A DNA stretch of 39,499 nucleotides, taken from contig JBIOJT010000002.1 of NCBI GenBank assembly GCA_044451055.1, forward strand, positions 1-39,499, in the 5' to 3' direction. Numbering within the stretch: the first letter of the stretch is position 1; every line of letters starts with the position of its first letter. The notes beneath the pieces are model-generated. The model was given only the letters and a program-made list of their open reading frames with translations. It was not told where the DNA came from and searched no databases. This DNA is from Candidatus Methylomirabilales bacterium. GTDB lineage: Bacteria > Methylomirabilota > Methylomirabilia > Methylomirabilales > 2-02-FULL-66-22. Shown here one piece after another: positions 1,516 through 29,898 of the stretch. The translations under genes were made by a program, and so were the position numbers.

Positions 1516-1636
1516 TATTCCGCTCGCCGGGTGCCGATCCGAATGTGACTCCGCATCGTCCGAGCACGAGATTCGACAGCGATATCCGATAGGGACAGCG
1601 CGTGGGGAATCGCTGTCGGTTCATCGGGAGTGCGGG

Positions 1637-2596: not shown

Positions 2597-2786
2597 CCAG
2601 GACCCGTCGTCCATGCCTGCCAGGCACCCATGGGAGTATCCGGGGCGGCTTTTCTGTTTTTTGTCGTCCGTGCGCCCGGGCGTGGGGTGGGGTGGGGTTC
2701 GCGACGGGCGGCGAAGGGAGAGGCAGGAGCTGGTACACATCCCGGCATCGAGGCATCCGGCAGAGAAAGGAGGGCCCGTGCTCTTC

Positions 2787-3050
2787 ATGGTCATCGAGCG
2801 GTTCAAGAACCGGGATGGGAAAGCAGTCTATCGCCACTTTCTGCAGAAGGGCCGAGGGCTGCCTGAAGGGTTAACATTTGTGGCGGGCTGGATCGAAGCG
2901 AACTTCGACCGGTGCTTCCAACTCATGGAATGCGACGACGCACGCCTCCTTCAGCGGTGGGTGCTTCATTGGCAAGGCCTGATCGAGTTCGAGATCATCC
3001 CCGTGGTCCCGTCCAAGGAAACGGTGGAAACAATCACCCCGATGCTCTGA
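2787..3050 (+). CDS. small DUF3303-like protein (hypothetical)
   Basis: MVIERFKNRDGKAVYRHFLQKGRGLPEGLTFVAGWIEANFDRCFQLMECDD... resembles the DUF3303 family. GAAAGGAGGG lies 12 nt upstream of ATG 2787. The 5' part of track ORF 2613..3050 is Arg/Gly-rich and looks non-coding. GTG 2778 is an alternative start. Confidence 0.55.
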   Translation: MVIERFKNRDGKAVYRHFLQKGRGLPEGLTFVAGWIEANFDRCFQLMECDDARLLQRWVLHWQGLIEFEIIPVVPSKETVETITPML

Positions 3051-3083
3051 TCCCTTTCTGGAGACCAGAGGAGAGACTCTTCC

Positions 3084-4127
3084 ATGCCGATTCTCGGGCA
3101 CGAACCTCTCGAAACACTCGCGCGAGAGATCTTCCAGGCCATCCGCGTCCCGCGGGATGGGGCCGCGTGGATGGCCAAACTTCTGGTCCGGGCCAACCTG
3201 CGCGGGCATGATTCCCATGGAGTCATCCGCATCCCCCAATACATCGCCTCATGGCGCAAGGGCGAAGCGAATCCAACAGCCGAGCCGCAGATCGTGCAGG
3301 AAGGGCCGGCCACTGCGTTAATGGACGGGAAGCTGGGCTTTGGACAGATCGTGGCCCGACACGGGATGGAGGTGGCCATGGAGAAGGCGGCGGCGGTCGG
3401 CGTCTCGACCGTCGGCGTCTTCAACAGCAACCACATCGGCCGTCTGGCGGATTACACAGAGATGGCGCTCGCGCGCGACATGCTGGCCATGCTGGCCGTG
3501 AATGCCGGCGGCGCCGGACAGCGCATGGCGCCGTGGGGCGGCCGTGCGCCGCGTCTGAGCACGAACCCCATCGCCTTTGCCTGTCCCGCTGGAGGTGCCC
3601 AACCCATCAGCTTCGACATCGCAACCACGGTCGCCGCCGAGGGGAAAGTCCGGGTGAAGCGGAACCGGAAGGAGCAGATGCCCCTCGGCTGGGTCCTGGA
3701 TGCGGAGGGACGGCCCACGGCGGATCCCAATGCTCTCTACGGCAATCCTCCTGGCACCATCCTGCCGGCGGGCGGGCACAAGGGATACTGCCTGGCCCTG
3801 ATGATCGAGGTCCTGGGGGGGATCATGGCTCGCGGAGGATACTCGAAGGAACATCCCGGACCACTCCGGAACGGGGTGTTCATGGTCGTCGTGGATATCG
3901 CGCGCTTCGTCCCGCCCGACACCTTCCGCGCCGAGGTGGACGATCTCGTCCGATATCTCAAGACCTGTCCCACGGTGCCGGGAACGGACACGATCCTCAC
4001 GCCGGGCGAGCCAGAGGCGATCATGGAGGCGGAGCGCCGCCGGTCGGGAATCTTCGTCGAGGACCAGACCTGGCACCAGATTCGAGAGATCGCGCGGGAA
4101 CTGGGGGTAGCGGTTCCGATCGCGTAG
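3084..4127 (+). CDS. Ldh_2 family (malate/L-lactate/ureidoglycolate dehydrogenase-like) oxidoreductase
   Basis: 347 aa. LRGHDSHGVIRIPQY, NSNHIGRLADY, STNPIAFACP and AGGHKGYCLALMIEVLGG match the Ldh_2 (PF02615) fold pattern. Confidence 0.85.
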   Translation: MPILGHEPLETLAREIFQAIRVPRDGAAWMAKLLVRANLRGHDSHGVIRIPQYIASWRKGEANPTAEPQIVQEGPATALMDGKLGFGQIVARHGMEVAMEKAAAVGVSTVGVFNSNHIGRLADYTEMALARDMLAMLAVNAGGAGQRMAPWGGRAPRLSTNPIAFACPAGGAQPISFDIATTVAAEGKVRVKRNRKEQMPLGWVLDAEGRPTADPNALYGNPPGTILPAGGHKGYCLALMIEVLGGIMARGGYSKEHPGPLRNGVFMVVVDIARFVPPDTFRAEVDDLVRYLKTCPTVPGTDTILTPGEPEAIMEAERRRSGIFVEDQTWHQIREIARELGVAVPIA

Positions 4128-4765: not shown

Positions 4766-5986
4766 TTAGGCCTTCTTCAAGAGCTTGGCCGCCCTGGGTG
4801 CCCGGAGTCTGTGGGCGGACCCGAACCCTGACCCAAGCAGGGGCCGGACGTAGGAGATGAAGGCGTCGGTCACGTCATTGCCTTCCTGATTGATGAACTC
4901 GTCCGGCATCCTCCGCGTCTTCGCGGCGATCTCTTCCAGCGGGCTCAGCCGGTAGTCCACGGAGTAAGAGCCCGTCCGGTGGATGGTGACCGAGCCGTCC
5001 ATGTTGTGCCACAAGGCAAACTGGACTGCCCGTTCGCCCACCTCTCGCGCCTCGTGCTGATCCACGTCCGACACGCAGCCGAAGAACGACCGCTGCAGAT
5101 ACCCGAACGTGTCGGACCGGATCCGCTTAATACTCAGGTGCTGCTTCACCTGCTGGGCCAGGAGATCCCCAAGGGCTCCAGTCCCGGACAACTGGATATT
5201 CCCGTGGGCGTCCTTCTCCACGCGGTCGACCAAGTTGGTGATGATCGGCTTCCCCTCCGAATCGATGATCCCCTCCGAAACCGCCACGACGCACCGTCCG
5301 AAACGGTCGTAGACCTGCCGGACATCCTTCAGGAACTGGTCGACGCTGAACGGGCGCTCCGGCAGGTAGATCAGATGGGGTCCGTCGTCGGGATATTTTC
5401 TGGCCATGGCCGACGCCGCGGTCAGAAAGCCCGCATTCCGGCCCATGATGACGGCGATGTAGACCCCGGGCAGCGCGGCATTGTCCAGGTTCGCCCCGAT
5501 GAACGCCTGGGCGACGAACCGCGCCGCCGAGCCGTAGCCTGGCGTGTGGTCATTCACGGTTAGGTCGTTGTCGATCGTCTTGGGGATGTGGATGGCGCGG
5601 AATTCGTAGTCCGGTTTCTCCGGCTGCCCGTTCATGATCCGCACCGTGTCAGCGGAATCGTTGCCCCCGACGTAGAAGAAGTAACGGATGTCGTGAGCCC
5701 GCATGACCTGGAACATCTCCCTGCAGTATTTCTCATCGGGTTTGTCCCGCGTCGAGAAGAGGGTCGAAGAGGGAGTGATGGCGACCTGCTCGAGGTTGTG
5801 CGTGGTTTCCTGGGTTAGATCCAGGAAGTCCTCGTTGATGATGCCGCGAACGCCGTACGCGGCACCATACACGCTGGTCACCTGGGGGAACTTTCGTGAT
5901 TCGAGCACGACCCCCACGAGCGACTGGTTGATGACCGCGGTCGGACCGCCGCCCTGCGCCACCAAGACCTTCCCGACAAGTTTCAT
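4766..5986 (-). CDS. 6-phosphofructokinase, PfkA family (GGNDS / PKTIDND / MGR motifs; possibly PPi-dependent)
   Basis: 406 aa. VAQGGGPTAVIN, FFYVGGNDSADT, IPKTIDNDL, VIMGRNAGFL. Strong SD (AAGGAGG) 5 nt upstream of ATG 5986. Confidence 0.9.
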   Translation of the reverse strand: MKLVGKVLVAQGGGPTAVINQSLVGVVLESRKFPQVTSVYGAAYGVRGIINEDFLDLTQETTHNLEQVAITPSSTLFSTRDKPDEKYCREMFQVMRAHDIRYFFYVGGNDSADTVRIMNGQPEKPDYEFRAIHIPKTIDNDLTVNDHTPGYGSAARFVAQAFIGANLDNAALPGVYIAVIMGRNAGFLTAASAMARKYPDDGPHLIYLPERPFSVDQFLKDVRQVYDRFGRCVVAVSEGIIDSEGKPIITNLVDRVEKDAHGNIQLSGTGALGDLLAQQVKQHLSIKRIRSDTFGYLQRSFFGCVSDVDQHEAREVGERAVQFALWHNMDGSVTIHRTGSYSVDYRLSPLEEIAAKTRRMPDEFINQEGNDVTDAFISYVRPLLGSGFGSAHRLRAPRAAKLLKKA

Positions 5987-6124
5987 GTGAACCTCCTTAT
6001 GGCCTCCTCTTCAGGAAATCCAGACCGATACCCCCAATAACGAAGAAAGCTCACCACGGGCGAAAAAGGGGGGGGAAAGGGGAAACCCTGCAATATGACG
6101 CCCATCGAAGATAGCGTCACGTGT

Positions 6125-6506
6125 TATTTCGCCAGCACCCGTGAGGGCTCCAGGACGTGACGGTCCAAGGACTTCGTCTTCCAAACGGTTCCGCACGGGG
6201 GCTGGTAATCACATCGCCCTTGATGAGAGCGACCAGTACCGCGAGTCCGCCGCAGGCGAGGCTCTCGGTCGCGCCCGCGCCGAGCCGGGTGGCCAGGATC
6301 CGATCGAGCATCCCAGGCGTGCCGCGTCGCTGGAGGATGCCGCCCACGTCCCGCGCCGTGAGCGACTCCATCATGCCCGAGATCAGACCGGTGCAGTCAT
6401 TGCGGATGCCGAAGACCCCCCATCCGTGGTCAAGACCTGTACGGACGACCGTGCGAATGACCGTATTCATCCCCGGCACGTCACCTTCGCTGGTCAGGAC
6501 GGCCAT
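6125..6506 (-). pseudogene. pfkA: relic of an ATP-type 6-phosphofructokinase (internal deletion plus frameshift)
   Basis: MAVLTSEGDVPGMNTVIRTVVRTGLDHGWGVFGIRNDCTGLISG...RDVGGILQRRGT is a PfkA N-terminus (SGGD mutated to SEGD). It joins directly to a PfkA C-terminal segment, DRILATRLGAGATESLACGGLAVLVALIKGDVITSP. The natural-looking end (GTVWKTKSLDRHVLEPSRVLAK-stop at 6127..6125) is in a different frame. Confidence 0.7.
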
Positions 6507-6816
6507 CCGCTTCGTGGTGGCTCTCCTCGCAACGCGGTGATGAGTGCTGGAATTGCCCCCTTGAGGGTATGCGGCCGTCTCGCCCCTGTCAAGGCTCCGG
6601 CATCGCGGACAGTACATTTCAGCCCGGGCGCCGGCGAGGTGGGCTGCCGTATCCGAACACCCCAATTGAGGCCCCGGATGCCCATCAGCACCATGTCGTA
6701 GCACGGGATCCAGGCGGGAACCGTGAATATGTCAATCTGCGCGGCCAGGGTTCCGGCAGGGGTCCCGAGGCTGAAGCGACCACAGGTGCTCTGCGGCTAC
6801 CTACTCTCACGTCCTG

Positions 6817-7699: not shown

Positions 7700-9207
7700 G
7701 CCAGCCCCCCTTTCCACAACCTGACACCCCTGGGCACACCTATCCCCTTACGCAGCGGTGGAGAGAGCATCTTCGCCATCACGACTCAGAACGAAACCGG
7801 CTGGAAGGCGAGGATGGCCTTGCATCGGTCCTCCCCTTCTCGGGACGTGAAAGTTCGAGGTATGGGAACCACGGGCTGCCGAGTGCCCTGGCTGGACAAG
7901 TGGATGAGAAGACAGCAAGCGCCATCGCGGCCCGTTATGCGCGGTAGGGATATGGTGGGCGAGCACTCCCGCCATGTGGGGATAGTTTCGGAAGCCTCGT
8001 AAGGGAGCGTATCGAATGCGGCAGGGGGAGTCAAGGGGAATGCTCCCCACCAGGAGGATTGGAGGATGAAGAAGATCTGGAAGGACTGCCCCAGAAGGAT
8101 ATCTCGCCCACAGGGATTCGGCAGGGGGCAGAATGAAGTGGAGGGTCGCTAGACAGACGCGATTTTTGCCCTTGATTCGCGCCGCGAGGTCACCGCGCCC
8201 AGCCCTATGGTGGGCTGCACATCTGGACTCCGTCTCCAGCGGCGACTACCCACACTCGCTGGCGTGCATCGGAGTGTGTCCAGCAGGCACCCCTTTCCAT
8301 AGCCTGCCGATCTGCGATGAGCGAAAAAAATAATGTGAGGCTGAGTGGACGAGCGTGCGAATCAGACATTCCCATCCAAGTTGAATCCCATCCTCTTTCG
8401 ACCTCGTCTGCCTCTCTTGCTTCTTTCTGTTCCTCATTCGTTGCAGTGCGTCTCTTCGTGTCTCCAGGTGTCTTAACAGTTGGCGCACCCCGCCGCACGG
8501 GCACGGCACTTGACGCGGTGCTACTCAGCCTCTCCCATAGTCCAAGCATCGGGAGTTGATATTACGGAGGAGCGATGTCGCGAGGCAACGTGTGCGCGCC
8601 GTCCGTCCGACACCGGGAGCGTTCGCTGAAGGGGTGATAATCCTTTGCCGCCCTCGTCACTTTTTGTCATTCTCTTCCCCGGCAACTCTCGCATCTACCA
8701 GGTGAGAACTCCTCGAAAGAGCGATAGATCTTGGTTGGCCAGACCGGACCCCGGCCTTTCCGGGGATGTGGGAACGAATCTCGCATAGGCAGTGGGTGGC
8801 GAATCAAAGTGATGCTCAGCGAGAATAGGCCCCCCGTCGTCCTGGTTCGGTGGACGGATGCGCCGCGGGGTGAGTGGTTTCTAGGGGGCTGGTGGTTCTG
8901 TCAAAAGAGCAGTAGCTCCACCCTCCAGCGCCGGGAAGACCGGGTGCGCGTGCGGGAGCGGGTTCCGGTCCAGCTCCTGCGCTGGGAGGCCAAGGTCATT
9001 GACATCCGCCTCTCGGGTGCTCTCATCGGGCACACGAAACCAGTGCGCGTAGGGGATGCCTACCGTGACTGCAGGAAGGCAAAGCAGGATGAGGACCTCC
9101 CCAGCGGGCCCCCTTGGGTGCTCCCAGGAACGGCGAGATGGGCAGTCTCCGGGGCGGGGCAGGGCCAACTCGCCTGCACAGCTTATCGGGGAGTAGGAAG
9201 GCAGCCC

Positions 9208-9876
9208 ATGTCCGACTGGTCCATACATCGCCGGTTCGCCCGTTACCGGATTTCCCTCCCGATCGTCCACAGGTCCGTGCCCACAGGCATCGGCGCCGGG
9301 GTGGGCTGGACCCGGGACCTGAGCGAGGGGGGCGCGTGCGTGGAATTGGCCGAGCGTCTCTGGCCCCAAACCCCCATCCACCTCTGCCTCCAGACAGGCC
9401 GAGGCCACCTTGAAGTGGAGGCGCGGGTGGCTTGGACCGGGGAGCCCGATTCGGCCAGGGGCTGTACGCCCCATGGCCTGGCCTTCACGAAGGTCGCCGA
9501 AGATCAGCTTCAGGCGCTCCGGGACCTGATCCTCTCGCGGGAACAGGTGCGGCAGGCTGGGGTGCGCCTGCCTGTAGCGCTTCCCGTGACCTTTCGACCC
9601 AAGGGGCACTCCGGGCCCTCGCTCCACGGCCGGACCGGCAATATCAGCCGCGGGGGGCTCTCGCTTCGCCTCCTCCAGGCGTTCCCGCCCGGCATGGCGC
9701 TGGAAGTTACCCTCCACACCCGCACGGGGCCACTCACGGCGGAAGGGACGATCGCCTGGGTTGCCCCGCCAGACACGCGCAGGCCAGGGGAACTGATCCC
9801 GCACGGCTTGCGCTTCACCGCCTTCGGCTGGGCCACATCCGACTCCTTGGGTCTCGTCCTGGCGGAGTCCGTGTAG
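9208..9876 (+). CDS. tandem (di-)PilZ domain protein, paralog 1
   Basis: Two PilZ units. Unit 1: RRFARYR...DLSEGG...PHGLAF. Unit 2: VRQAGVRLPV...NISRGG...PHGLRF. ATG 9208 follows GGAG..GGAAGG and corresponds to the N-terminus of the downstream paralog. The frame is also open upstream to 8731 (see findings). Confidence 0.72.
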   Translation: MSDWSIHRRFARYRISLPIVHRSVPTGIGAGVGWTRDLSEGGACVELAERLWPQTPIHLCLQTGRGHLEVEARVAWTGEPDSARGCTPHGLAFTKVAEDQLQALRDLILSREQVRQAGVRLPVALPVTFRPKGHSGPSLHGRTGNISRGGLSLRLLQAFPPGMALEVTLHTRTGPLTAEGTIAWVAPPDTRRPGELIPHGLRFTAFGWATSDSLGLVLAESV

Positions 9877-10106: not shown

Positions 10107-10778
10107 GTGCTCCCCCTCCAACACCGGGTGCCGGGCCACCCGCTCTCCGGGGCCGCCGTGGGATGGACCCACAACCTGAGCGGAGGGGGGGCCTGTCTGG
10201 AGCTGGCAGAGCCCCTCCAACCCCAACTCTCCCTCGGCCTCCGGCTGCAGACCTCTGGTGGCCCAATCGAGGCGGAGGCCCGGGTCGTCTGGACTCGGAA
10301 CCCGCGGCCCGCCGAGGGCGGCAGCCTGCATGGGATCGCCTTCACCCAGCTTGCCCCGGACCACCTCGAGGTTCTGCGTCGTCTGCTCCTTTCCCTGCAG
10401 CCGTGGCGGCGTACCCAGGTGCGCTTCCCCGTCGATCTCGCCGTGATCTGTCAGCCACAGCGGCCGCCCGGGCCCCTCTACTCGAGCCGGGTGAGCGACA
10501 TCAGCCGAGGCGGGCTCGCGCTCCGCCTCCCCGAGGTGCTGCTTCCGTTCACGGCCTTGGACGTCACCCTGCCTACACCCGCCGGACGGCTCTCGCTGGC
10601 GGGGGAGATCGCCTGGGTGGATCGCCCAGAGGGGCGGAGGCGAGGGAGGCTGATCCGGCACGGCATGCGCTTCGCTCGCCTGGACTGGTCCACCGCACTG
10701 GTTCTGGCGCGCCTCCTGGCGGAGGCGCTGAACAGTCCGCAGCTTTCCTCCCCAGAGGTCCGCACAACGCCCCGCTGA
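10107..10778 (+). CDS. tandem (di-)PilZ domain protein, paralog 2 (start uncertain; the homologous sequence begins at about 10059)
   Basis: About 45% identical by eye to paralog 1. NLSGGG...LHGIAF, then RRTQVRFPV...DISRGG...RHGMRF. The first canonical in-frame start is GTG 10107, but the RQFTR (RxxxR) motif is encoded upstream at 10083-10097. Confidence 0.72.
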   Translation: MLPLQHRVPGHPLSGAAVGWTHNLSGGGACLELAEPLQPQLSLGLRLQTSGGPIEAEARVVWTRNPRPAEGGSLHGIAFTQLAPDHLEVLRRLLLSLQPWRRTQVRFPVDLAVICQPQRPPGPLYSSRVSDISRGGLALRLPEVLLPFTALDVTLPTPAGRLSLAGEIAWVDRPEGRRRGRLIRHGMRFARLDWSTALVLARLLAEALNSPQLSSPEVRTTPR

Positions 10779-12398: not shown

Positions 12399-13670
12399 GT
12401 GATCAAGGGTGTCAGGGGAGCTCCGGATATCCTTCCCGAGGACTCGGGAAAATGGCAGGCGCTGGAGGCCGTGGCCCGAGACGTGCTCGACCGATACGGC
12501 TACGCCGAGATTCGAACCCCGGCGTTTGAGCGCACCGAACTCTTCGTCCGCGGGATCGGAGAAGGGACGGACATCGTCGAGAAGGAGATGTACACGTTCG
12601 AGGATCGGGGCGGAGAAAGTCTCACCCTCCGGCCCGAGGCCACCGCGTCTCTCATGCGGGCCTACGTGGAGCACAACCTGGGCGCCAAGAGCAGCCTGGT
12701 GAAGTTCTATCTCATTGGGCCCATGTTCCGCCACGAACGGCCCCAATCCGGCCGGTTTCGCCAATTCCACCAGATCGACGTAGAAGCCGTCGGGTCCCCG
12801 GGCCCGGCCGTGGACGCCGAGGTGGTGGCCCTGCTCCACCACCTGCTGGAGGCCTGGGGGCTGCAAGGCATCCTGTTGCACCTCAACAGCATCGGCGATC
12901 CGGTGTGCCGGCCGGCGTACCGGCAGTCGTTCGTGGCCTATGCGCAGGCCCACCGGGCAGCCCTGTGCCCGGACTGCCACGTCCGGCTGGAGAAGAATCC
13001 CCTGCGGATCCTGGACTGCAAGGTGCCGGGGTGCCAGCAGATCGCGGCCGGCGCCCCCACGATCTCGGCATACCTGTGTGCGCCCTGCCGCGAGCATTTC
13101 GCGACCGTGCGCAGCTTGCTGGACGGGCTGAAGATCGGTCACACGGTGAACGACCGCCTGGTGCGAGGGCTCGACTACTACACCCGGACCACCTTCGAGT
13201 TCCTGAACCCGGCGTTGGGTTCTCAGAATGCCGTGGCGGGAGGCGGCCGCTACGACGGCCTGGTGGAAGAACTCGGGGGGCCAGCCACGCCCGCCATCGG
13301 CTTCGCCATCGGTGAGGAGCGGATCCTCGCCTCGCTGGCAGCGCAGCAGACCCCGCAGGAGGCGCCGACTTATACCGGTGTGTATGTGGCCACGGCCGGG
13401 ACGGAGGCCTTTCCCGCAGCCTTCGATCTCGTCCAGACGCTCCGGAAGCGTGGGCTGCGGGCCGCCGTGGACCTCGAGGCGCGAAGCCTGAAGGGCCAGC
13501 TGCGGCAGGCCAACAAGGATCGGTGCCGCTACTCAGTGATCCTCGGCAGCGACGAGCTCGCCCGGGGGGAGGCGACCCTGAAGGACATGGTCTCCGGTGA
13601 ACAGCGGGCGATCCCCCTCGGAGAGGTGGTGGATCGCCTGACCAGATTGCCCGACCGAGAGTACGCCTGA
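12399..13670 (+). CDS. hisS: histidine--tRNA ligase
   Basis: [23 protein letters not shown]..., [29 protein letters not shown] 12399 follows GAGAGG. The longer track ORF (from 12189) overlaps glpX and was rejected. Confidence 0.92.
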
Positions 13671-15439
13671 TGAAGGATTGGGCGCGAAGCCTGTATTGCG
13701 GTGAGCTGCGGGCCGCCCACGCCGGTCGGGTGGTCACCCTCAACGGCTGGGTGGACCGCCGCCGGGACCTCGGAGGACTCATCTTCGTGCACCTCCGCGA
13801 CCGGGAGGGCATCGCGCAGGTCGTCTTCAATCCCGAACGATTTGCCACCGCCTACGAGACTGCCAAGGCCATGCGCTCGGAGTACGTAGTGGCCGTCCGC
13901 GGCGAGGTCTGCCGCCGCCCGCCAGGTGCCGAGAATACGGATCTCGCCACAGGCGAGGTGGAGGTGGTGGCGCATGAGGCGGTCATCCTCAACGACGCCA
14001 AGACGCCCGTCTTTCCGATCGAAGACGAGACCGACGTCGGCGAGGACCTCCGCCTGACCTACCGGTACCTGGATTTGCGACGGGCGCCGCTGCAGCGGAA
14101 CCTGCGGTTGCGGCATCGATTCTACCAGGTGACACGCCGCTACCTGGACTCTCAGGGGTTCATCGAAGTGGAGACCCCCGTCCTCACTAAGAGCACGCCC
14201 GAAGGGGCTCGCGACTACCTCGTGCCGAGCCGGGTCAACCCGGGCGAGTTCTTTGCGCTGCCCCAGTCCCCACAGATCTTCAAGCAGTTGCTCATGATCT
14301 CCGGGTTCGACCGGTACTTTCAGATCGTGAAGTGCTTCCGGGACGAAGACCTTCGCGCCGACCGCCAGCCGGAGTTCACGCAGATCGACATCGAGATGTC
14401 CTTCGTGGATCGAGAGACGGTCCTCGCCACCATGGAGGGGCTGGTTGTCGAGATCTTCAAGGAGATCAAGGGGCTGGATCTTCCCCGACCCTTCCCGCGC
14501 CTCATCTACGCTGATGCGATCCGACGGTTCGGCCTGGATGCGCCGGATACCCGATTCGGCCTGGAACTCCAGGACGTGGGTGACCTCTTCGCCGGGACCT
14601 CGTTCCGCGCCTTTGCTCAGCCGCTCGAGGCCGGGGGGCGGGCCATGGCCCTGAATGCCAAGGGGTGTGGCGACTATCCCCGGAGCCAGCTCGATCAGCT
14701 CGAGGACTTCGCCAAGGGATTCGGCGCGAAGGGGCTCGCCTGGTTCAAGATCGGCCCCGACGGCATCCAGTCGCCCATCGCCAAGTTCCTGGGACCGGAC
14801 GTCCTGCAGCGCTTCCGCGAGCGGATGGGAGGGGAGGAGGGCGATTTGGTGCTCCTCTGCGTGGATCGGTCCAAGCCCGCCGCCGACGCCATGGGGCGGC
14901 TCCGCCTGCGCTTCGGCCAGGAACTCAAGCTGATCGATCCCGAGGCGCTGGCCATCACCTGGGTCACCCACTTCCCGTTGCTGGAGTGGGACGAGCGGGA
15001 GAAGCGCTGGTCGGCCATGCACCATCCGTTCACGTCCCCCGTGGACGAAGACCTTCCACTGTTCGACACCGATCCGGGGAAGATCCGCGCCAAGGCCTAC
15101 GACTTGGTGCTGAACGGGGCCGAGGTCGGCGGGGGCAGCATCCGGATCCACCGGCGGGAGGTCCAGAACAGGATGTTCCAGGCCCTGGGGATCGACCCGG
15201 AGGAGGCGCGGGCGCGGTTCGGCTTCCTCCTCGACGCCTTGGAGTACGGGACGCCGCCTCACGGCGGGATCGCCTTTGGCCTGGATCGACTGGTGATGAT
15301 CCTGACGGGAGCGCAGTCCATCCGCGATGTCATCGCCTTCCCCAAGACGCAGCGGGCGCAGGACCTCATGAGCCAGGCCCCGTCACCGGTGGACCCGTCC
15401 CAACTGGGCGAACTCCACATCAAGCTGGACCTCGCCTGA
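13670..15439 (+). CDS. aspS: aspartate--tRNA ligase
   Basis: 589 aa. [64 protein letters not shown] overlap with the hisS stop. Confidence 0.95.
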
Positions 15440-22585: not shown

Positions 22586-22906
22586 ATGAGCGACGATCTG
22601 CTGGAGCTGAAAGCGAATATCCTGAAGGCGTTGGGCCAGCCAACGCGGCTGAAGATCCTGGAGCTCCTGCGGAACGGCGAGCGATGTGTCTGTGAGATCT
22701 TTCCCGCCATAAAGGAAGAACAGTCCAATGTCTCCCGTCACCTGGCTCTCATGAAGGCCAGCGGGATCCTGGCCTCGCGAAAGGAGGGGCAGATGGTCCA
22801 CTACCGCGTTCGGGATCCCCAGGTCTTCAAGCTCCTGGACGGTGTCAACGCCCTTCTCAAGAACCACATTGCGGAACGGAAGAGTTTGTCTCGCCGCCTG
22901 GTCTGA
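22586..22906 (+). CDS. arsR: ArsR/SmtB family metalloregulator
   Basis: 106 aa. LKALGQPTRLKILELLRNGERCVCEIFPAIKEEQSNVSRHLALMKASGILASRKEGQMVHYRV, a winged HTH with a CVC metalloid site. Confidence 0.88.
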   Translation: MSDDLLELKANILKALGQPTRLKILELLRNGERCVCEIFPAIKEEQSNVSRHLALMKASGILASRKEGQMVHYRVRDPQVFKLLDGVNALLKNHIAERKSLSRRLV

Positions 22907-23006
22907 GAGCACGACACGACGACAACTACCTTCCCCCAAGAACCCTTCCTAGTACACTCTTGCCGGCAGGTCAGCGCTTTCCCGACCCGCATGCACAGAA
23001 CTCTGG

Positions 23007-23054
23007 TTGACAGGATGGGTGAGGAGGAATAACATATGCGCTGATTTGCATATG
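23007..23054 (+). promoter_or_regulatory. promoter plus perfect 8-bp inverted repeat (putative ArsR operator) of the arsR2-acr3-arsC operon
   Basis: TTGACA (23007-23012), 17 nt spacer, TAACAT (23030-23035). ACATATGC-N7-GCATATGT (23032-23039 / 23047-23054) overlaps the -10 element and the expected transcription start. Confidence 0.5.
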
Positions 23055-23072
23055 TCCGGAGGCTCAATTGCC

Positions 23073-23438
23073 ATGAAAGACATGACCCGACTCTTGGCTG
23101 TTCTGGCAGACGCCACGCGCCTGCGGCTGGTCCGCCTACTGCTCCGGCAGGAGTTGTGCGTCTGCGAGTTGGTAGACGCGCTCTGCATGCCTCAATACAA
23201 GGTGTCGCGCCACCTGCGTCAGATGCGGGCCATCGGGCTGGTCGAGGCGAGGCGGCGCGGTCGGTGGATGCACTACCGGATCGGCGGAGTCGCGGCCCCG
23301 AGCGGCGTCCACCAGGCCCTGCTGAAAGTCCTGGGCGCGCACCTGAAGGATCTGCCGGACGCGAAGCGGGATGATGCGCGCCTGCGGCGGCGCCTGACGC
23401 TCCGTCAGGCGGGGCGGTGCGTCGTGGGGCAGAGGTAG
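23073..23438 (+). CDS. arsR: ArsR/SmtB family arsenite-responsive repressor
   Basis: Start at ATG 23073 (GGAGG 9 nt upstream). LADATRLRLVRLLLRQELCVCELVDALCMPQYKVSRHLRQMRAIGLVEARRRGRWMHYRI, with the ELCVCEL As(III) site. Confidence 0.85.
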   Translation: MKDMTRLLAVLADATRLRLVRLLLRQELCVCELVDALCMPQYKVSRHLRQMRAIGLVEARRRGRWMHYRIGGVAAPSGVHQALLKVLGAHLKDLPDAKRDDARLRRRLTLRQAGRCVVGQR

Positions 23439-23540
23439 CTCTGGCGTTTGTCGAAGCCTGGCTGTCGGCATCCCGGCACGGACGTCCCGGCAGGGAGGCA
23501 CGCGAAGCCCCATCCTTTCTCTCAACGAAGGAGGTTCCGG

Positions 23541-24620
23541 ATGACTCAAGGGGTTGCCAAGAGGCTCTCGTTCCTCGACCGGTACCTGACCCTGTGGATC
23601 TTCCTCGCCATGTTTGTCGGCGTGGGCCAGGGATATCTCTTGCCCGACAGCATTACCTGGATCTCGGCGTTCCAGGTGGGGACGACCTCGATCCCGATCG
23701 CGCTCGGCCTCATCCTCATGATGTACCCACCGCTCGCCAAGGTGAAGTACGAGGAGATCGGGCGGGTTTTCAGGGATGTCCGGGTCCTTGCGCTTTCTCT
23801 CGTCCAGAATTGGATCATCGGCCCGATCCTGATGTTTCTCCTGGCAATCACGTTTCTCCGCGACTACCCAGAGTACATGGTCGGGCTCATCCTGATCGGC
23901 TTGGCGCGCTGCATTGCCATGGTCATCGTCTGGAACGATCTGGCGAAAGGCGACACCGAGTACTGCGCCGCCCTCGTTGCCTTCAACGCCATTTTCCAGG
24001 TGTTGTTCTTCTCCGTGTATGCCTATGTCTTCATCACCGTCCTGCCCACCTGGCTCGGGCTGCAGGGTGCGGTGGTAAACATCTCCATCCGCCAGATTGC
24101 GGAGAGCGTGTTCATTTACCTCGGCATTCCCTTCATCGTGGGAGTGATCACCCGATTCAGTCTGATCGGACTCAAGGGAAAAGCGTGGTACACGACGCAG
24201 TTTATCCCGCGCATCTCCCCCCTCACGCTGATCGCGCTTCTGTTCACGATCGTCGTCATGTTCAGCCTGAAGGGAGAGTATATCGTCCGTCTGCCCTTGG
24301 ATGTGCTGCGGGTTGCCCTCCCATTGCTGATCTACTTCGTGGTGATGTTTCTGGCCTCGTTCTACATCAGCCGGAGGTTTGGGGCGGACTACGCGAAGAG
24401 CGCGTCTCTGTCCTTCACGGCCGCCAGCAACAACTTCGAACTGGCCATTGCGGTGGCGGTCGGCGTGTTTGGGCTGAATTCCGGGGCTGCCTTTGCCGCC
24501 GTCATTGGTCCGCTGGTGGAGGTGCCGGTACTCATCAGTCTTGTCAATGTGGCCTTCTGGTTCCAGCGGAAGTACTTCGCGGTCGCGCCGAGAGTTCAAA
24601 GGGCGATGGGCTCTCGCTGA
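23541..24620 (+). CDS. acr3: ACR3-family arsenite efflux transporter
   Basis: Start at ATG 23541 (GAAGGAGG upstream). [21 protein letters not shown]..., [29 protein letters not shown] are canonical ACR3. Confidence 0.92.
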
Positions 24621-24659
24621 CGCTCGCCCTGGTGAGCGCCGCGCATCGAGGAGGGGAGT

Positions 24660-25124
24660 ATGCCAGGTCCGGTCAGGGTGATGTTCGTTTGCACCGGCAA
24701 TTCTGCGCGCAGCCAGATGGCCGAAGGGTTTGTCCGCTATATCGGCCGGGGCCGGATAGAGGCGTGCAGTGCGGGGATGGAGCCAAGCCAGTTGAACCCG
24801 TTTGCCGTGACCGTCATGCAGGAGAAGGGGGTTGACATCTCGGGCCAGCGGTCGAAGGGATTTGACGAGGCCCTGGCCCGCCGGATGGACGTGGTGGTGA
24901 CGGTGTGCGGCAACGCCGATGAGCGTTGCCCGATCCTTCCTCCGGAGGTCACGAGGCTCCACTGGCCGCTGGAGGACCCGGCTGCGGCGCAAGGAACCGA
25001 GGCCGAGATTCTGAGCAACTTTCGGGAAATCCGAGACCAGATCGAGGCAAGGGTCCAGGAACTGGTGAGAACTCTCGATTCTTCGAACACCGAGGGGTTG
25101 GCCCGAGACCTCGCGGGTAGATGA
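24660..25124 (+). CDS. arsC: arsenate reductase, LMW-PTP (thioredoxin-coupled) type
   Basis: 154 aa. VMFVCTGNSARSQMAEGF (CX5R P-loop), VTVCGNADERCP (second Cys pair). Confidence 0.92.
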   Translation: MPGPVRVMFVCTGNSARSQMAEGFVRYIGRGRIEACSAGMEPSQLNPFAVTVMQEKGVDISGQRSKGFDEALARRMDVVVTVCGNADERCPILPPEVTRLHWPLEDPAAAQGTEAEILSNFREIRDQIEARVQELVRTLDSSNTEGLARDLAGR

Positions 25125-25137
25125 GGAGGAAGGCGCA

Positions 25138-25545
25138 GTGGCGAAGAAGGCGAAGCCCGGGGAGAAGTTGCCGGGACCGTTTAAGAACTTTACGAATGAG
25201 TTCCCTGCGGTCATTGCAGAGTACGACGCAATGGGAAGGGCCGCCCATGCCGGGGGTCCGCTAGATGCGAAGACGCGTGAGCTGTTCAAGCGGGGTATGG
25301 CCATCGGGGCGCGCCTGGAGGGGGCCACGCATTCCCATGTCTGCAAGGCCATCGGCGAAGAGCAATCCAAAGTTTCCAAGCACCTGGGTATTCTTCGCCG
25401 TGCTGGAATCCTCTTCGCCCGCCGAGATGGGGGCAGGGTGATGTACCGATTGAAGGATACAGGGGTTTCGGAATTCCTGCGGAAGCTTCACGACCTCGTT
25501 CCGGCCGATTTTTTTTGTACGGGACATGAGGACATGGTCATATGA
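25138..25545 (+). CDS. chimeric ORF: Cys-less CMD/AhpD-like N-terminal half fused to an ArsR C-terminal half
   Basis: 135 aa, GTG start. Residues 1-66 (FKNFTNEFPAVIAEYDAMGRAAHAGGPLDAKTRELFKRGMAIGARLEGATHSHV) follow the carboxymuconolactone-decarboxylase pattern, but L and A replace the CxxC cysteines. The rest (CKAIGEEQSKVSKHLGILRRAGILFARRDGGRVMYRLKD) closely matches arsR1 residues CEIFPAIKEEQSNVSRHLALMKASGILASRKEGQMVHYRVRD. Confidence 0.6.
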   Translation: MAKKAKPGEKLPGPFKNFTNEFPAVIAEYDAMGRAAHAGGPLDAKTRELFKRGMAIGARLEGATHSHVCKAIGEEQSKVSKHLGILRRAGILFARRDGGRVMYRLKDTGVSEFLRKLHDLVPADFFCTGHEDMVI

Positions 25546-25849
25546 TTATTTTCACCTGTTCGGCAACTTCGCTGTAATCAACCCGGGCCGATGGATCTTT
25601 CGTGGTCGGGAGTTAGCCACTCCATGCAGCCGTGAGACACGGGAAGCGAAATGGTGAGACAAAAGGGTCAGCCGTGCTGCCTTACACGCACATCAACCGA
25701 CTGCCTTCAAGCCATGACGGACCTGGCAGGGAAGAATGCGACACGATCGGTCGCTGATTGCGGGCAGTCCAACCCGCCGTGCGGATCGTGAACAGGAGAC
25801 GAAGTTGATCGAGCGACCCGGGATGGTGCTGGGGTAAGGAGGGTCATTG

Positions 25850-26983
25850 ATGGACGGTGCTGAACGGAAGCCTTGTTGCGCGATGGGGGGTGGTGAAAGG
25901 CAGCAAGCGTTCGCGTTGGCAACGAGGAATCCGCTGACGACACGATACTTTCTTGCCACTGGATTTGGAGTGATCGCCTGGTGGTTGGTGTACCGACAGT
26001 TGGCGCCTGTGGCGGACTGGGCGACTTACACCCTCATGCATCTGGAGCGGGGAACGCACCTCTCTGCGACCGTCGAGTTCTTTGTGTTCGAGGTGCCCAA
26101 GGTCCTCATGCTGCTGCTCCTCGTAGTCTTTGGAGTGGGCATCGTTCGGACCTTCTTCACCCCGGAGCGGACGCGCCGGATCCTGGCCGGGCAGCGGGAG
26201 TCAGTTGGGACGGTGCTGGCGGGACTACTTGGCATTGTCACGCCCTTCTGCTCCTGCTCGGCCGTGCCGCTCTTCCTGGGCTTCGTTACCGCCGGGATCC
26301 CACTCGGCGTGAGCCTCACGTTCCTGATCTCGGCCCCCATGGTGAACGAGGTCGCCCTGGTGCTCCTCTACGGGATGCTCGGGTGGAAGGTTGCGGCGAT
26401 CTATATGAGCACCGGCCTGGCCATCGCCATGGTGTCGGGCTGGACGATCGGGCGTCTGCACATGGAAAAGCACGTGGAAGAGTGGGTGTGCGAAGCCCGG
26501 ATGGGAGACGGGGGGTCCGAACAGCGCCTCGACTGGGTCGCGCGGATCCACTACGGCCTCGACTCGGTCCGAGAAATCGTCGGTAAGGTGTGGTTCTACG
26601 TCGTCCTGGGGATTGCGGTCGGGGCAGGCATCCACGGCTATGTCCCGGAGAACTTCCTGGCCGGGATCATGGGGAAGAGCGCGTGGTGGTCCGTGCCCCT
26701 CGTGGTCCTCATCGGCATCCCCATGTATTCTAATGCCGCCGGGATGATCCCTGTGGTGGAGGCCCTACTGGCGAAGGGGGCAGCGCTGGGGACGGTCCTC
26801 GCCTTCATGATGGCGGTGATTTCCATCTCCACTCCGGAGGCAATCATCCTGCGGAAGGTGCTGAAGCCCCGCCTAATCGCCGTTTTCATCGGAGTAGTCA
26901 CAGTCGGCATCCTGATCGTCGGGTATCTGTTCAACCTGTTGCCGCTCCAGAACATCGTCACGGCAGGACACGCTCTGCCCTGA
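25850..26983 (+). CDS. ArsP/DUF318-type permease
   Basis: ATG 25850 (AAGGAGGG 7 nt upstream). Polytopic, with GIVTPFCSCSAVPLF, the signature of the permease family that includes organoarsenical exporter ArsP. N-terminal KPCCAMGGG. Confidence 0.85.
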   Translation: MDGAERKPCCAMGGGERQQAFALATRNPLTTRYFLATGFGVIAWWLVYRQLAPVADWATYTLMHLERGTHLSATVEFFVFEVPKVLMLLLLVVFGVGIVRTFFTPERTRRILAGQRESVGTVLAGLLGIVTPFCSCSAVPLFLGFVTAGIPLGVSLTFLISAPMVNEVALVLLYGMLGWKVAAIYMSTGLAIAMVSGWTIGRLHMEKHVEEWVCEARMGDGGSEQRLDWVARIHYGLDSVREIVGKVWFYVVLGIAVGAGIHGYVPENFLAGIMGKSAWWSVPLVVLIGIPMYSNAAGMIPVVEALLAKGAALGTVLAFMMAVISISTPEAIILRKVLKPRLIAVFIGVVTVGILIVGYLFNLLPLQNIVTAGHALP

Positions 26984-27136
26984 CGACATGAACTGACGAA
27001 TGAGATGCCCCTTCTCCGAGGGAACACTCGTGAGGATAGACACGGTCGAGAATCCAGGGCGTGACAGGCGCAAGCGGCCTCAGGACCTGCTAGGACCGTT
27101 AGCGTTCAACCCCCATTGAGACTGGAGGGAACAACC

Positions 27137-27385
27137 ATGAAGATCCAGATTGCCGGACCGGGGTGCCCGCGATGCCAGACGACGGAGAAGAATGTCATCA
27201 ATGCGTGCGCGCAACTTGACCTGGCTGCCGATATCTCGCACATCTATGACGTGAAGGAGTTTGTGAAGCTGGGCGTGATGTCGACTCCCGCTGTGATCGT
27301 GGACGGCAAGATCGTGATGTCGGGCAGGGTCCCCACCGTCGGAGAGTTGAAAGCGATTCTGTCCGAGACCGGACGCGCTAATTGA
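27137..27385 (+). CDS. small thioredoxin-fold protein (redox-active disulfide protein 2-like)
   Basis: 82 aa. MKIQIAGPGCPRCQTTEKNV...STPAVIVDGKIV. CPxC motif. Commonly paired with DUF318 permeases. GGAGGGA upstream. Confidence 0.85.
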   Translation: MKIQIAGPGCPRCQTTEKNVINACAQLDLAADISHIYDVKEFVKLGVMSTPAVIVDGKIVMSGRVPTVGELKAILSETGRAN

Positions 27386-27447: not shown

Positions 27448-28269
27448 ATGAGCATATTGACGGGGAAGCGATTCGGGTTCCTGGGAGCGGGGGTGATCGC
27501 CGAGGTCTCCGTCCGCCGCCTTCTCGGCAGCAGGCTGGCCAAAGCAGAAGAGATCCTGGCCTACGACATCAAGGAGGCGATCCTTGAGCGCCTGGCCGTT
27601 ACCTTCGAGGTCCGGCCGATGAAGAGCAACAGCGACGTTGCGGCCAACGCCGACTACATCTTTCTGGCGGTCCCGCCCCTGGCGATAGTACCGGTCCTGC
27701 GAGAAGTCGCGCCTGCTCTCCGCATTGACCAGATGATCTTGTCACTGGCTGCTGCCGTGTCAACGGAACTCATGGAGGCGGCGATCGGCAAGCCGGTCCC
27801 GGTGGTGCGCCTCATTCCCAACACGCCGTTCTGGATCGGACAAGGCATGAATCCATATTGCCTCGGAAGTCATGTCGGGCCGGGAGAAGCGGAGGAGGCG
27901 TGGGAATTGCTCAAGGTGTTCGGCAAGGCCGAAGAGATCCCCGAGGAGCAGATGGCCATCGCCACGGCGCTGACGGCGGTGGGACCGACCTACATCTTTC
28001 CGGTGATCGCCGCCCTGGCCGATGCCGCCATTGCCCATGATCTGCCGCCGCACATCGCGCTGCCCGCGGCCTGCCAGGTCGTTGCCGGGGCCGCCGCCCT
28101 GGTGACGCAGACCGAGCGAAGTCCGAATAGCCTGAGCCTGATGATCGGCACCCGCACATTGGATGAAGGAGCCGCGAGAAAACTCTTCACCCAAGCCGTC
28201 GAGGATGCCCACGCCAAGATCATGGCGACAGAGGCGAAGGTCACCGCAGGAGCCGCAGCGAAGAGTTGA
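27448..28269 (+). CDS. pyrroline-5-carboxylate reductase-like NAD(P) oxidoreductase
   Basis: 273 aa. FGFLGAGVIAEVSVRRLL (Rossmann GxGxxA), RLIPNTPFWIGQGMNPY, and a C-terminal P5CR dimerisation-like region (ALTAVGPTYIFPVIAALADA). Confidence 0.78.
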   Translation: MSILTGKRFGFLGAGVIAEVSVRRLLGSRLAKAEEILAYDIKEAILERLAVTFEVRPMKSNSDVAANADYIFLAVPPLAIVPVLREVAPALRIDQMILSLAAAVSTELMEAAIGKPVPVVRLIPNTPFWIGQGMNPYCLGSHVGPGEAEEAWELLKVFGKAEEIPEEQMAIATALTAVGPTYIFPVIAALADAAIAHDLPPHIALPAACQVVAGAAALVTQTERSPNSLSLMIGTRTLDEGAARKLFTQAVEDAHAKIMATEAKVTAGAAAKS

Positions 28270-28274
28270 CCTCT

Positions 28275-28311
28275 CAAAAAACTCCGGCCCCTCCGGGTGA
28301 CGGAGGGGCCG
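28275..28311 (-). terminator. intrinsic terminator of the minus-strand AhpD-like gene (may also stop the convergent plus-strand operon)
   Basis: Perfect 11-bp stem CGGCCCCTCCG / CGGAGGGGCCG (28285-28295 / 28301-28311) with a 5-nt loop. On the minus strand it is followed by GAGTTTTTTGAG (A6 on the plus strand at 28276-28281). Confidence 0.6.
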
Positions 28312-28335: not shown

Positions 28336-28632
28336 CTACTTCTTGGCTTCGCGATCGTACTTATCCTTCCACTTCTTGTTCAAGTCCTCGATCCCGTCAA
28401 TGTGCTTGATGGTGCTCCAGGTGGCGCGGGCCGCGCCCCGCATGGCGTAGTACAGGGTCTCCATCAGCTCATCCTCGGTGGCGCCGGCTTGCTTCGCGGC
28501 CGCGAAGCGACCGGGCACTCAGCTGGTACAGCCGGCTGCGGCCATGGCGGCCAGGGCAACTAACTGCGTGGTCTTCGGGTCCAGCGTCCCCTCGCGATAG
28601 AACACCCCCGCAAACTCTTTCATGGCTCCCAT
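28336..28632 (-). CDS. AhpD/carboxymuconolactone-decarboxylase-like protein with in-frame UGA (probable selenocysteine, CxxU)
   Basis: One 99-codon frame from ATG 28632 (GAGGAGGAGGA upstream) to TAG 28338..28336, interrupted only by TGA at 28521..28519. Sequence ...TTQLVALAAMAAAGCTS[U]VPGRFAAAKQAGATEDELMETL... The UGA occupies the second Cys position of the family CxxC motif. A hairpin lies immediately downstream. Confidence 0.65.
28484..28514 (-). promoter_or_regulatory. SECIS-like stem-loop downstream of the in-frame UGA
   Basis: mRNA: UGA-GUGC-CCGG-UC-GCUUCGC(GGCC)GCGAAGC-AAG-CCGG. The 18-nt perfect palindrome is at 28491-28508, flanked by complementary CCGG at 28511-28514 and 28484-28487. 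It begins 5 nt after the UGA. Confidence 0.45.
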
Positions 28633-28689
28633 GCGATCCTCCTCCTCTTGCTTGGGTTGGTGGGCTGTTTCCCCACAAGTGCCGCGGTG

Positions 28690-28717
28690 ATTATACTCGA
28701 CGAGGCTCCAGTTGCAA
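28690..28717 (-). promoter_or_regulatory. sigma70-like promoter of the AhpD-like gene
   Basis: Minus strand: TTGCAA (28717..28712), 16 nt spacer, TATAAT (28695..28690), about 55 nt upstream of ATG 28632. Confidence 0.5.
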
Positions 28718-29072: not shown

Positions 29073-29101
29073 TTGACTCGCCCCGGTCCAATCGGTAGTG
29101 T
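29073..29101 (+). promoter_or_regulatory. possible promoter of the REC-PilZ gene
   Basis: TTGACT (29073-29078), 17 nt spacer, TAGTGT (29096-29101). Confidence 0.3.
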
Positions 29102-29127
29102 CCATCCTGTCCTTCATGGAGGCAGGC

Positions 29128-29898
29128 ATGCCTGGGGAAACGGTGCTGATCGTAGAGGACGATGACTCTCTGCGGGTGGCCCTGGCCGATTCCCTGGCCC
29201 GCCTGGGGTACGAGATCATCGAAGCCGGAACCGGCACCGAGGGCTATGCCCTGGCCGCCCGGGAACTTCCGGATCTCATCCTCCTGGACCTCGGCCTGCC
29301 GGACGTGGACGGGCTGTCACTGGCCAAGAAACTGCGCGAGCAATCCGAGACGGCCGGCATCGTGATTGTCGCGCTCACGGCCGAAGAGATCTCGGGCATT
29401 CGAGCGGAGGATGTCTTCAAGCACTGCATCGGGTACATCCCCAAGCCGGTCGGCTTGGAGCGTCTCGCGCGCAACGTTGCACTCTTCCTGCGGGTCGGGG
29501 GTCCCCACGCGAAACGCGCAAAGGCAGGGACTCCGGTCGATGATCACCCCAAGCGGCGCTACCCTCGCTTCAACGTCGAGATCGGGGCGATCTGCCGGTT
29601 GCGCGGCGGTGGCAGGCAGCCTGGCGCCGCGAGGATCGCAGGCCTCATCCGGAATCTGAGCGAAGGCGGCGTCATGCTGGAACTGCCCAGGTCGTACGGG
29701 AAGGGAACCATGCTCGAGATCAGCCTCCGTACTGACGACGCTAGGCTGCAGGCCGTCTCAGAGGTCGTATGGACCGGCCCGCCGGAGATGATCACCGGGG
29801 TGGGGCAGGTATTCCGTCACGGCCTCCGCTTCGTCTGGATGGATCAGGAGCAGCGGAACACCATCCGGCGGTTCATCGTCAAGCGGTACACCGCCTAG
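29128..29898 (+). CDS. response regulator with C-terminal PilZ domain (REC-PilZ)
   Basis: TVLIVEDDDSLRVAL...DLILLDLGLPDVDG...IGYIPKPV forms a complete REC domain. Then KRRYPRFNVE...IRNLSEGGVMLEL...FRHGLRFVWMD is a PilZ domain (RxxxR + NxSxxG). ATG 29128 follows GGAGG (29118-29122). ATG 29116 and GTG 29098 are alternative starts. Confidence 0.85.
   Translation: MPGETVLIVEDDDSLRVALADSLARLGYEIIEAGTGTEGYALAARELPDLILLDLGLPDVDGLSLAKKLREQSETAGIVIVALTAEEISGIRAEDVFKHCIGYIPKPVGLERLARNVALFLRVGGPHAKRAKAGTPVDDHPKRRYPRFNVEIGAICRLRGGGRQPGAARIAGLIRNLSEGGVMLELPRSYGKGTMLEISLRTDDARLQAVSEVVWTGPPEMITGVGQVFRHGLRFVWMDQEQRNTIRRFIVKRYTA

Follow-up and report, generated by a model that had tools for sequence, protein, structure and literature searches.

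The 39,499-nt stretch of DNA analyzed here (positions 1 to 39,499 of contig JBIOJT010000002.1, assembly GCA_044451055.1, Candidatus Methylomirabilales bacterium; hereafter the window) carries on its minus strand a small gene that is interrupted by an in-frame TGA codon and that very probably encodes a selenoprotein related to carboxymuconolactone decarboxylase (CMD) and AhpD. Translation of positions 28632..28336 yields one frame of 99 codons, which opens with ATG at 28632, contains a single internal TGA at codon 38 (28521..28519) and closes with TAG at 28338..28336. This frame had been proposed from the letters of the window alone, in what we call the sequence-only reading, and the translated peptide is exactly the one quoted there. 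As that reading also stated, the list of open reading frames (ORFs) has a sole entry at this place, a 60-residue stub (28336..28518) with a GTG start right after the TGA. The full coding sequence (28336..28632, minus strand) would specify a protein of 98 residues, as judged from the translation, from Pfam and from the conservation of the frame across 82 loci of related genomes. The codon that we predict to be read as selenocysteine (Sec), the TGA at 28519..28521, is the last of a redox motif, C-T-S-U, whose first residue is the cysteine of codon 35 (TGT, 28528..28530).

Several signals surround this frame, two of which had been pointed out in the sequence-only reading. The first is a Shine-Dalgarno sequence, GAGGAGGAGGA, read at 28647..28637 (minus strand), 4 nt before the ATG; its GGAGG core is kept at the same place in the relatives. 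The second is a sigma-70-type promoter-like site (28690..28717, minus strand) recovered by a promoter scan, in which TTGCAA (28717..28712) and TATAAT (28695..28690) are separated by 16 nt. This site scores 10 of 12 matches, and shuffled sequences are expected to give 0.1 such sites. Both hexamers are kept in the closest relatives (loci L005, L001, L031, L007, and L024), where the flanking sequence has diverged. A terminator scan added a third signal, an intrinsic terminator (28275..28311, minus strand) composed of a GC-rich stem of 11 bp (28311..28285) and the T-run that comes after it. The terminator hairpin, GGCCCCTCC...GGAGGGGCC, is also kept in the relatives, with loops that vary. In the closest relatives, the promoter, the Shine-Dalgarno sequence and the terminator have been preserved even as the stretches between them diverge, from which we conclude that the gene is its own transcription unit, convergent to the neighboring genes.

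Profile searches, in which the UGA was scored as Cys, assign the read-through product to the CMD family (Pfam PF02627) with 55.3 bits (E = 6.5e-15), well above the cutoff of 23, and the family assignment made from the letters alone holds. The 37 N-terminal residues reach 29.4 bits on this profile by themselves. The AhpD core domain model TIGR00778 is matched marginally above its cutoff (28.5 vs. 27.8 bits). The three best matches in NCBIfam are to curated models of selenoproteins that contain an AhpD-like domain, and each score lies below the cutoff of its model: NF041047 (GSU3128 family (seleno)protein; 50.1 bits vs. 110), NF041537 (ArsM/AhpD-domain selenoprotein; 48.5 bits vs. 510) and NF045649 (MduS; 44.3 bits vs. 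380), the latter two being matched over their AhpD-like part only. When aligned with proteins of known structure, the codon-35 Cys falls on the first Cys of the CxxC motif in 7y4r and 1vke, and the UGA codon falls on the second Cys of that motif (CDGC in 7y4r, CDDC in 1vke), which is where the sequence-only reading had placed it.

As a stand-in for the window protein, we modeled the structure of a Cys ortholog (P0002, 76% identical). The AlphaFold2 model (predicted local distance difference test, pLDDT, of 86) consists of five helices, and the redox motif (residues 35-38) is found at the start of the helix that spans residues 38-48. The top 30 Foldseek matches of this model against the PDB were all members of the CMD family, with TM-scores of 0.46-0.58 and modest E-values of at least 0.01. 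AhpD proper is a two-domain protein of about 175 residues, in which a His follows the second Cys at a distance of four residues as part of a proton relay (CxxCxxxH). The corresponding residue of the window protein is Arg42, encoded by CGC in 78 of 78 distinct sequences, and the His signature of AhpD proper is absent. Given Arg42 and the length of 98 residues, we name the protein AhpD-like/CMD and not AhpD proper.

A search at the protein level yielded 500 relatives (E <= 0.001); among the 120 matches listed, all but six are stubs of 59-63 residues equal to the downstream fragment. The public gene calls in relatives comprise a fragment of 37-75 amino acids and a fragment of 60 amino acids; in two relatives that we inspected, these appear as a short "CMD (weak)" ORF abutting a 60-residue ORF. 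The expectation that standard annotation would split the gene is borne out by these calls. The same calls can be taken at face value, as two small genes: the first would encode a 37-residue peptide that ends at the TGA and the second a 60-residue protein, whose translation would restart at GTG through stop-start coupling at UGAGUG, with any downstream hairpin being incidental or regulatory. Gene callers annotate exactly these two pieces, and the codon after the TGA is GTG in 74 of the 78 distinct sequences. In the other four sequences, however, this codon is not a start codon (GTA in two, GCG in one, ACG in one), without loss of conservation in the remainder of the gene. Moreover, no purine-rich Shine-Dalgarno sequence precedes the GTG (...GGCTGYACCTCCTGAGTG), and the hairpin described below would bury this start codon. 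A single CMD domain and a single helix-capping CxxC motif span the junction, and the 60-residue half alone scores 14 bits on PF02627, below the cutoff of 23. Two separate genes are therefore very unlikely.

The comparison of related loci points to a single gene that is read through. We scanned one genome per species and recovered 80 loci, each matching across both halves, for a total of 82 loci analyzed, nearly all of them from metagenome-assembled genomes (MAGs) of Methylomirabilota/Rokubacteria/NC10. Codon 38 is TGA in all 82 loci (about 80 species-level genomes), and neither TGC nor TGT was found in any of them. These loci comprise 78 distinct sequences with nucleotide identities of 67-99%. 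Across the 78 sequences, the entropies at codon positions 1, 2 and 3 are 0.20, 0.11 and 0.91 for the 34 upstream codons and 0.30, 0.24 and 0.76 downstream of the UGA, which indicates that both halves evolve under purifying selection in the read-through frame. Codon 35 encodes Cys in every one of these sequences (73 TGC and 5 TGT).

These data also bear on the possibility that the gene is a nonsense-mutated pseudogene of a CxxC CMD gene. A TGA is one base away from TGC or TGT, and decay-like variants do exist on isolated contigs (a GGA codon with an extra stop in L085 and a truncated second copy in L011). The sequence-only reading had named relatives with TGC or TGT at this codon, together with decay of the upstream half, as the mark of such a pseudogene. 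The loci present the opposite pattern, with TGA in 82 of 82 down to 67% identity and strong purifying selection on both halves, including the 37 upstream codons, and the promoter, Shine-Dalgarno sequence and terminator are conserved as well. A stop codon that is fixed across the phylum together with its flanking frame refutes the pseudogene, to which we assign almost no probability.

A few sequences depart from this pattern at position 38. Three full-length calls (P0001, P0003 and P0004) have L, R or G where Sec is predicted; the codon is CGA (Arg) in P0003 (L084:531-839) and GGA (Gly) in P0004 (L085:3001-3234), and the hairpin is intact in both. We considered these two variants as cases of alternative decoding and rejected them: each is present on a single contig and lies one base off TGA, and L085 has an extra in-frame stop in its upstream half, so that they are probably sequencing or assembly errors or recent lesions. 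Separately, L011 contains at 13591-13791 a second copy that retains only the 55 or so C-terminal codons; its start falls within the hairpin's 3' arm, and the sequence before it is unrelated. This copy is probably a remnant of duplication.

A reassigned genetic code, in which UGA is read as sense genome-wide (codes 4 or 25) and codon 38 is an ordinary Trp or Gly codon, would also yield a continuous frame. Nothing specific to the locus favors it, and TGA is the stop codon of 24 of the 37 confidently called genes of the window, all with full-length Pfam matches. Since TGA is the usual stop in the window, the code is not reassigned, and we consider this explanation nearly impossible. Among the in-frame TGAs of the window, the codon-38 site is the only one with coding signal on both sides and a redox motif.

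The transcript downstream of the TGA can fold into a hairpin with the features of a bacterial Sec insertion sequence (SECIS). The structure CCGG-UC-GCUUCGC(GGCC)GCGAAGC-AAG-CCGG is present at 28514..28484, and the minimum-energy fold widens it to 28518..28481 (minus strand), with a lower helix that begins at the base right after the UGA. The apical part (28491..28508, minus strand), which would be the part bound by SelB, is formed by a 7-bp stem (GCUUCGC/GCGAAGC) and a 4-nt loop, GGCC (28501..28498). The apical part has a free energy of -12 kcal/mol, and the element as a whole one of -23.3 kcal/mol. The published model of bacterial SECIS elements calls for a loop of 3-9 nt, an upper stem of 4-16 bp, a G in the first two loop positions, a distance of 16-37 nt from the UGA and a free energy of -7.5 kcal/mol or lower (PMC13188914). 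The hairpin falls within every one of these limits, with a loop of 4 nt that starts with GG, an upper stem of 7 bp, a spacing of 17 nt and the energy given above. The hairpin of SECIS place and shape that had been drawn from the letters alone is thus present.

The hairpin is strongly constrained across species. Over 70 distinct sequences, its 14 pairs are formed in 96.8% of cases, a figure that drops to 30-50% if the pairing partners are displaced by 1-3 columns. The seven apical pairs are formed in 99.8% of cases; six are invariant and the seventh, C27-G36, is broken in 1 of the 70 sequences. This constraint is exerted on nucleotides and not only on amino acids: the synonymous entropies of codons 42-49 sum to 0.95, and none of 100,000 resamplings of the same amino acids from the rest of the gene gave a value as low. 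Arg42 is encoded by CGC in all 78 sequences, while other invariant Arg codons present synonymous entropies of 1.1-1.7. The stem codons TTC and AAG are likewise found in 78 of 78 sequences, and GCG is used for Ala44 in 76 of 78 and for Ala46 in 77 of 78. Ala45 varies freely, its third base being the last position of the loop (C or U; GGCY loop). Gln48 is CAA in 72 of 77 sequences, against the usual preference for CAG, which encodes Gln23 in 69 of 70.

Three homologs encode Cys in place of the TGA: P0002 (L083, TGT), P0061 (L086, TGC) and P0091. In L083, two pairs are disrupted by a change of the 3' arm to GCC AAA C, and the fold is no better than that of shuffled sequences (z = +0.27). In L086, the region reads CGG TTT GCG GCA GCG CGG CAG and the stem is lost. 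Sites that are frozen in the 78 UGA forms therefore change freely once the codon is Cys, as expected for a SECIS. To judge from their sequences, these two rare Cys-codon relatives represent a natural control in which the SECIS constraint is relaxed. We also observed that P0061 (L086:48-377, CADC motif) lies amid phage-like genes (Phage_lysozyme, DUF1353 and HTH regulators), so that a Cys form of the family may be carried by a mobile element.

The nature of the inserted residue must also be considered, since UGA could be decoded as Cys: a SelC*/tRNA-ReC charged with Cys would be delivered by SelB to the same signal, and the motif would be CxxC either always or when selenium is scarce. Such recoding has been documented by Vargas-Rodriguez et al. 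(2018), as described in PMC13582414, and roughly 13-17% of the genomes surveyed in PMC13582414 contain tRNA-ReC-like genes. A conserved UGA, a SECIS and selection on both halves fit Cys recoding as well as they fit Sec. However, the same survey reports tRNA-ReC-like genes for Armatimonadota, Desulfobacterota and JAPLJL01, and not for Methylomirabilota. Cys can also be obtained by a one-base change to TGT or TGC that frees the hairpin, as L083 and L086 illustrate, and TGA has nonetheless been kept in 82 of 82 loci. The retention of TGA in spite of this easy route argues for a benefit that is specific to selenium, and we view the decoding of codon 38 as Cys as improbable.

Insertion of Sec requires a dedicated machinery, and some of our results weigh against a selenoprotein at this locus. 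A search with ARAGORN over the window and 86 loci gave no tRNA-Sec, and tblastn searches with E. coli SelA, SelB and SelD as rough probes returned nothing in the window and about 1.1 Mb of related loci. Because about 20 kb per genome was covered, this negative result on the sel genes says nothing either way about the whole genome. At the level of the RNA, no Rfam match was obtained for the hairpin at gathering thresholds, permissive searches yielded only noise and no general bacterial SECIS model was matched. Neither RNAalifold nor explicit pair counts revealed any compensatory change in the hairpin over the 70 distinct sequences; covariation is absent because the stem is invariant, and the proposed structure is based on pairing potential and nucleotide-level constraint and not on covariation. 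The 39-nt hairpin is modestly exceptional relative to shuffles (z = -2.4), and the 61-nt fold is unexceptional for its composition (z = -1.36), 24 of 200 shuffles being as stable. In this GC-rich context, the energy of folding carries little weight on its own. Since the single-sequence fold only partly exceeds chance, the significance of the read-through rests on the comparative data. Finally, the His of AhpD proper is replaced by the invariant Arg42, which suggests that the chemistry of the CMD/AhpD-like protein may differ from that of M. tuberculosis AhpD.

Indirect evidence suggests that the lineage of the window may use Sec. The window aligns with a 1.6-Mb NC10/Methylomirabilota contig (L031) at 86% identity over 11.6 kb, and this alignment places it in NC10/Methylomirabilota. 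A Methylomirabilota MAG with 63 predicted selenoprotein genes is mentioned in PMC13188914, which cites Deng et al. (2026) for it, and Sec-type group 4 hydrogenases have been described in Methylomirabilota (PMC13582414). Among our loci, L067 carries on the same contig as the AhpD-like gene a second candidate selenoprotein gene, for a member of the UGSC-family (seleno)proteins (NF041046; 161 bits vs. a cutoff of 125) with an in-frame TGA at the U position (8441-8443, minus strand); this MAG is labeled Thermodesulfobacteriota. In addition, a Methylomirabilota contig that carries the AhpD-like gene (L007) encodes at 1016-3256 (minus strand) a heavy-metal P-type ATPase in whose N-terminal metal-binding motif, GLT-U-PDC, a TGA (3101-3103) takes the place of the first Cys. 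This TGA falls within the Pfam HMA match (36.6 bits), and a hairpin with a GGAACG loop is found about 20 nt downstream. This gene, known here from one sequence, is a candidate UxxC selenoprotein. A further candidate, in L019, was rejected, as its TGA is the ordinary stop of a Tim44-like protein.

Taken together, the frame, the position of the UGA, the selection on both halves and the constraint on the hairpin make it very likely that the locus is a single-gene unit encoding a 98-residue CMD/AhpD-like selenoprotein with the redox motif Cys35-Thr-Ser-Sec38, whose UGA is read via the downstream hairpin acting as a SECIS. From these features we infer a mechanism for SelB binding, selenium insertion and catalysis. 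The hairpin would bind SelB loaded with Sec-tRNA(Sec), and the ribosome would insert Sec at codon 38 instead of terminating. Located at the N-terminus of the third helix, Sec38 would act as the attacking nucleophile and would be resolved by Cys35 through a selenenylsulfide during turnover. The product would be an all-helical thiol/selenol oxidoreductase of the AhpD-like type. Its likely role would be peroxide or disulfide reduction under oxidative or metalloid stress.

Selenoproteins of this type have been described before. "CMD domain-containing protein" and "AhpD-like 2" selenoproteins (PF02627, CxxU) were reported in the Sargasso Sea and Global Ocean Sampling surveys (Zhang, Fomenko and Gladyshev 2005, PMC1088965; Zhang and Gladyshev 2008, PMC2398784), and AhpD-like/CMD selenoproteins are listed in current catalogues (PMC13188914). 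The remark in the sequence-only reading that the family is not new agrees with this literature. The window protein shares with these groups the PF02627 domain, a CxxU motif whose second redox residue is Sec, the existence of Cys homologs and a SECIS after the UGA. Judging by description, it is set apart from these proteins, which came from ocean metagenomes, by its occurrence in soil and groundwater Methylomirabilota, by its 98 residues and by a stem-loop that is invariant in the clade.

The closest curated models present comparable likenesses and differences. Like the GSU3128 family (NF041047, a "distant AhpD homolog"), the window protein is small, single-domain and CxxU-containing, and it matches positions 8-68 of the 84 positions of the profile; its score is far below the cutoff, however, and it is not a member by the NCBI criterion. 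This sub-cutoff score probably explains the failure of annotation pipelines to recover the UGA as a sense codon. The C-terminal AhpD-like CxxU domains of ArsM/AhpD and MduS match the window protein as well, and the genomic setting is partly shared, since the window gene lies beside an arsenic-resistance island and a methyltransferase ORF is found downstream of it in about 26 related loci. Unlike these two proteins, the window gene product has 98 residues and lacks a methyltransferase domain.

The all-helical CMD fold is common to M. tuberculosis AhpD (Cys130-x-x-Cys133; PDB 1lw1), RclX (7y4r), TM1620 (1p8c/1vke) and TTHA0727 (2cwq). The window protein resembles all of them in having its redox pair at the N-terminus of a helix, with the UGA at the position of the second Cys. 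It differs from M. tuberculosis AhpD in its length (98 vs. 177 residues), in the predicted Sec in place of Cys and in the invariant Arg42 in place of His137, the proton-relay residue of that enzyme. At the level of the RNA, a bulged U in the upper stem is a feature of SECIS elements of the fdhF type and is not evident in the window hairpin. In other respects, the hairpin is similar to the E. coli fdhF-type SECIS (bSECISearch model, PMC13188914), with a stem-loop inside the coding sequence directly after the UGA, a small apical loop that starts with GG, an upper stem of 7 bp, a spacing of 17 nt and sufficient stability.

The gene is located next to a set of plus-strand genes devoted largely to arsenic resistance: two ArsR regulators (22586-22906 and 23007-23438), Acr3 (23448-24620), an ArsC of the low-molecular-weight phosphatase type (24660-25124), an ArsP-type permease (25847-26983), a thioredoxin-like protein of the MTH895/ArsE family (27116-27385) and a protein similar to pyrroline-5-carboxylate (P5C) reductase (27448-28269). 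The sequence-only reading held that the selenoprotein gene closes this ars/redox island. The island itself is real and is collinear in L031, L001 and, in part, L011, but its proximity to the gene is not general: the Acr3, ArsC, ArsP, thioredoxin-like and P5C-reductase-like genes adjoin the selenoprotein gene in only 2-3 of the roughly 62 loci with enough flanking sequence. We therefore rejected the hypothesis that the gene is a component of an ars operon; the linkage is confined to near relatives of the window, and the gene is convergent to the island with its own promoter and terminator.

The neighbors most often seen in other loci did not point to a firm functional partner either. An ORF for a class-I S-adenosylmethionine (SAM) methyltransferase is found directly downstream on the same strand in about 26 of the 62 loci (e.g., L032:717-1640), and none is encoded in the window. 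This methyltransferase does not reach any NCBIfam cutoff, its best matches being the DVU_1556 family and an ArsM-type domain. PdxS/PdxT are found upstream in about 27 loci and an amidase downstream in about 28. We did not retain any of these genes as a conserved operon partner, as the ars island is restricted to a clade and the methyltransferase is generic, with scores under every cutoff.

Several additional observations were made in the window. The ArsR-Acr3-ArsC segment (22996-25067) shares 93% identity with L031, against 81-87% for the collinear segments on either side; this higher identity could result from stronger constraint or from more recent exchange. Within the island, the interval that separates ArsC from the ArsP-type permease (25125-25846, about 720 bp) contains no ORF with a family match and has a GC content below that of its surroundings. 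Three proteins with a PilZ domain are encoded in the window (8731-9876, 10107-10778 and 29098-29898), one of which, a response-regulator-PilZ fusion, is encoded immediately upstream of the selenoprotein gene in divergent orientation, with conserved synteny in 6-7 loci. This suggests that genes of cyclic di-GMP signaling are common in the lineage of the window. In the first part of the window, an ORF of 195 codons (6117-6704, minus strand) covers no more than positions 1-64 of the phosphofructokinase profile and adjoins a full-length phosphofructokinase gene (4766-5986, minus strand), of which it may be a fragment or a diverged duplicate. No confident gene call was obtained from about 6700 to about 8700.

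A more speculative possibility is that the CxxU protein is a free-standing counterpart of the methyltransferase-fused AhpD-like domain of selenoproteins such as ArsM/AhpD and MduS. It would then work with the downstream SAM methyltransferase, or with the ars genes in the case of the window, by reducing or handing over a metalloid or organometal substrate. We find this proposal improbable. If true, it would imply that metalloid methylation or detoxification includes a step with an obligate need for selenium and that this step is widespread in Methylomirabilota.

The gene is a further CxxU CMD/AhpD-like selenoprotein, of a type known since 2005, and represents neither a new mechanism nor a new kind of protein. 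What distinguishes it is the consistency with which it is split in public annotation and an unusually frozen SECIS, whose constraint lapses in the Cys forms. The family thus offers a clean natural example of Sec versus Cys usage, in which TGA is retained in 82 of 82 loci, the stem is synonymously frozen and the constraint is relaxed in L083 and L086. Our results, of more practical than conceptual value, also amount to a correction of annotation, as hundreds of public calls for this family are stubs of 59-61 residues labeled as "YurZ" fragments or "hypothetical protein" and no curated NCBI selenoprotein model reaches its cutoff on this protein. Because the family is split or truncated in the MAGs of Methylomirabilota and Rokubacteria, counts of the Methylomirabilota selenoproteome are too low unless read-through is modeled.

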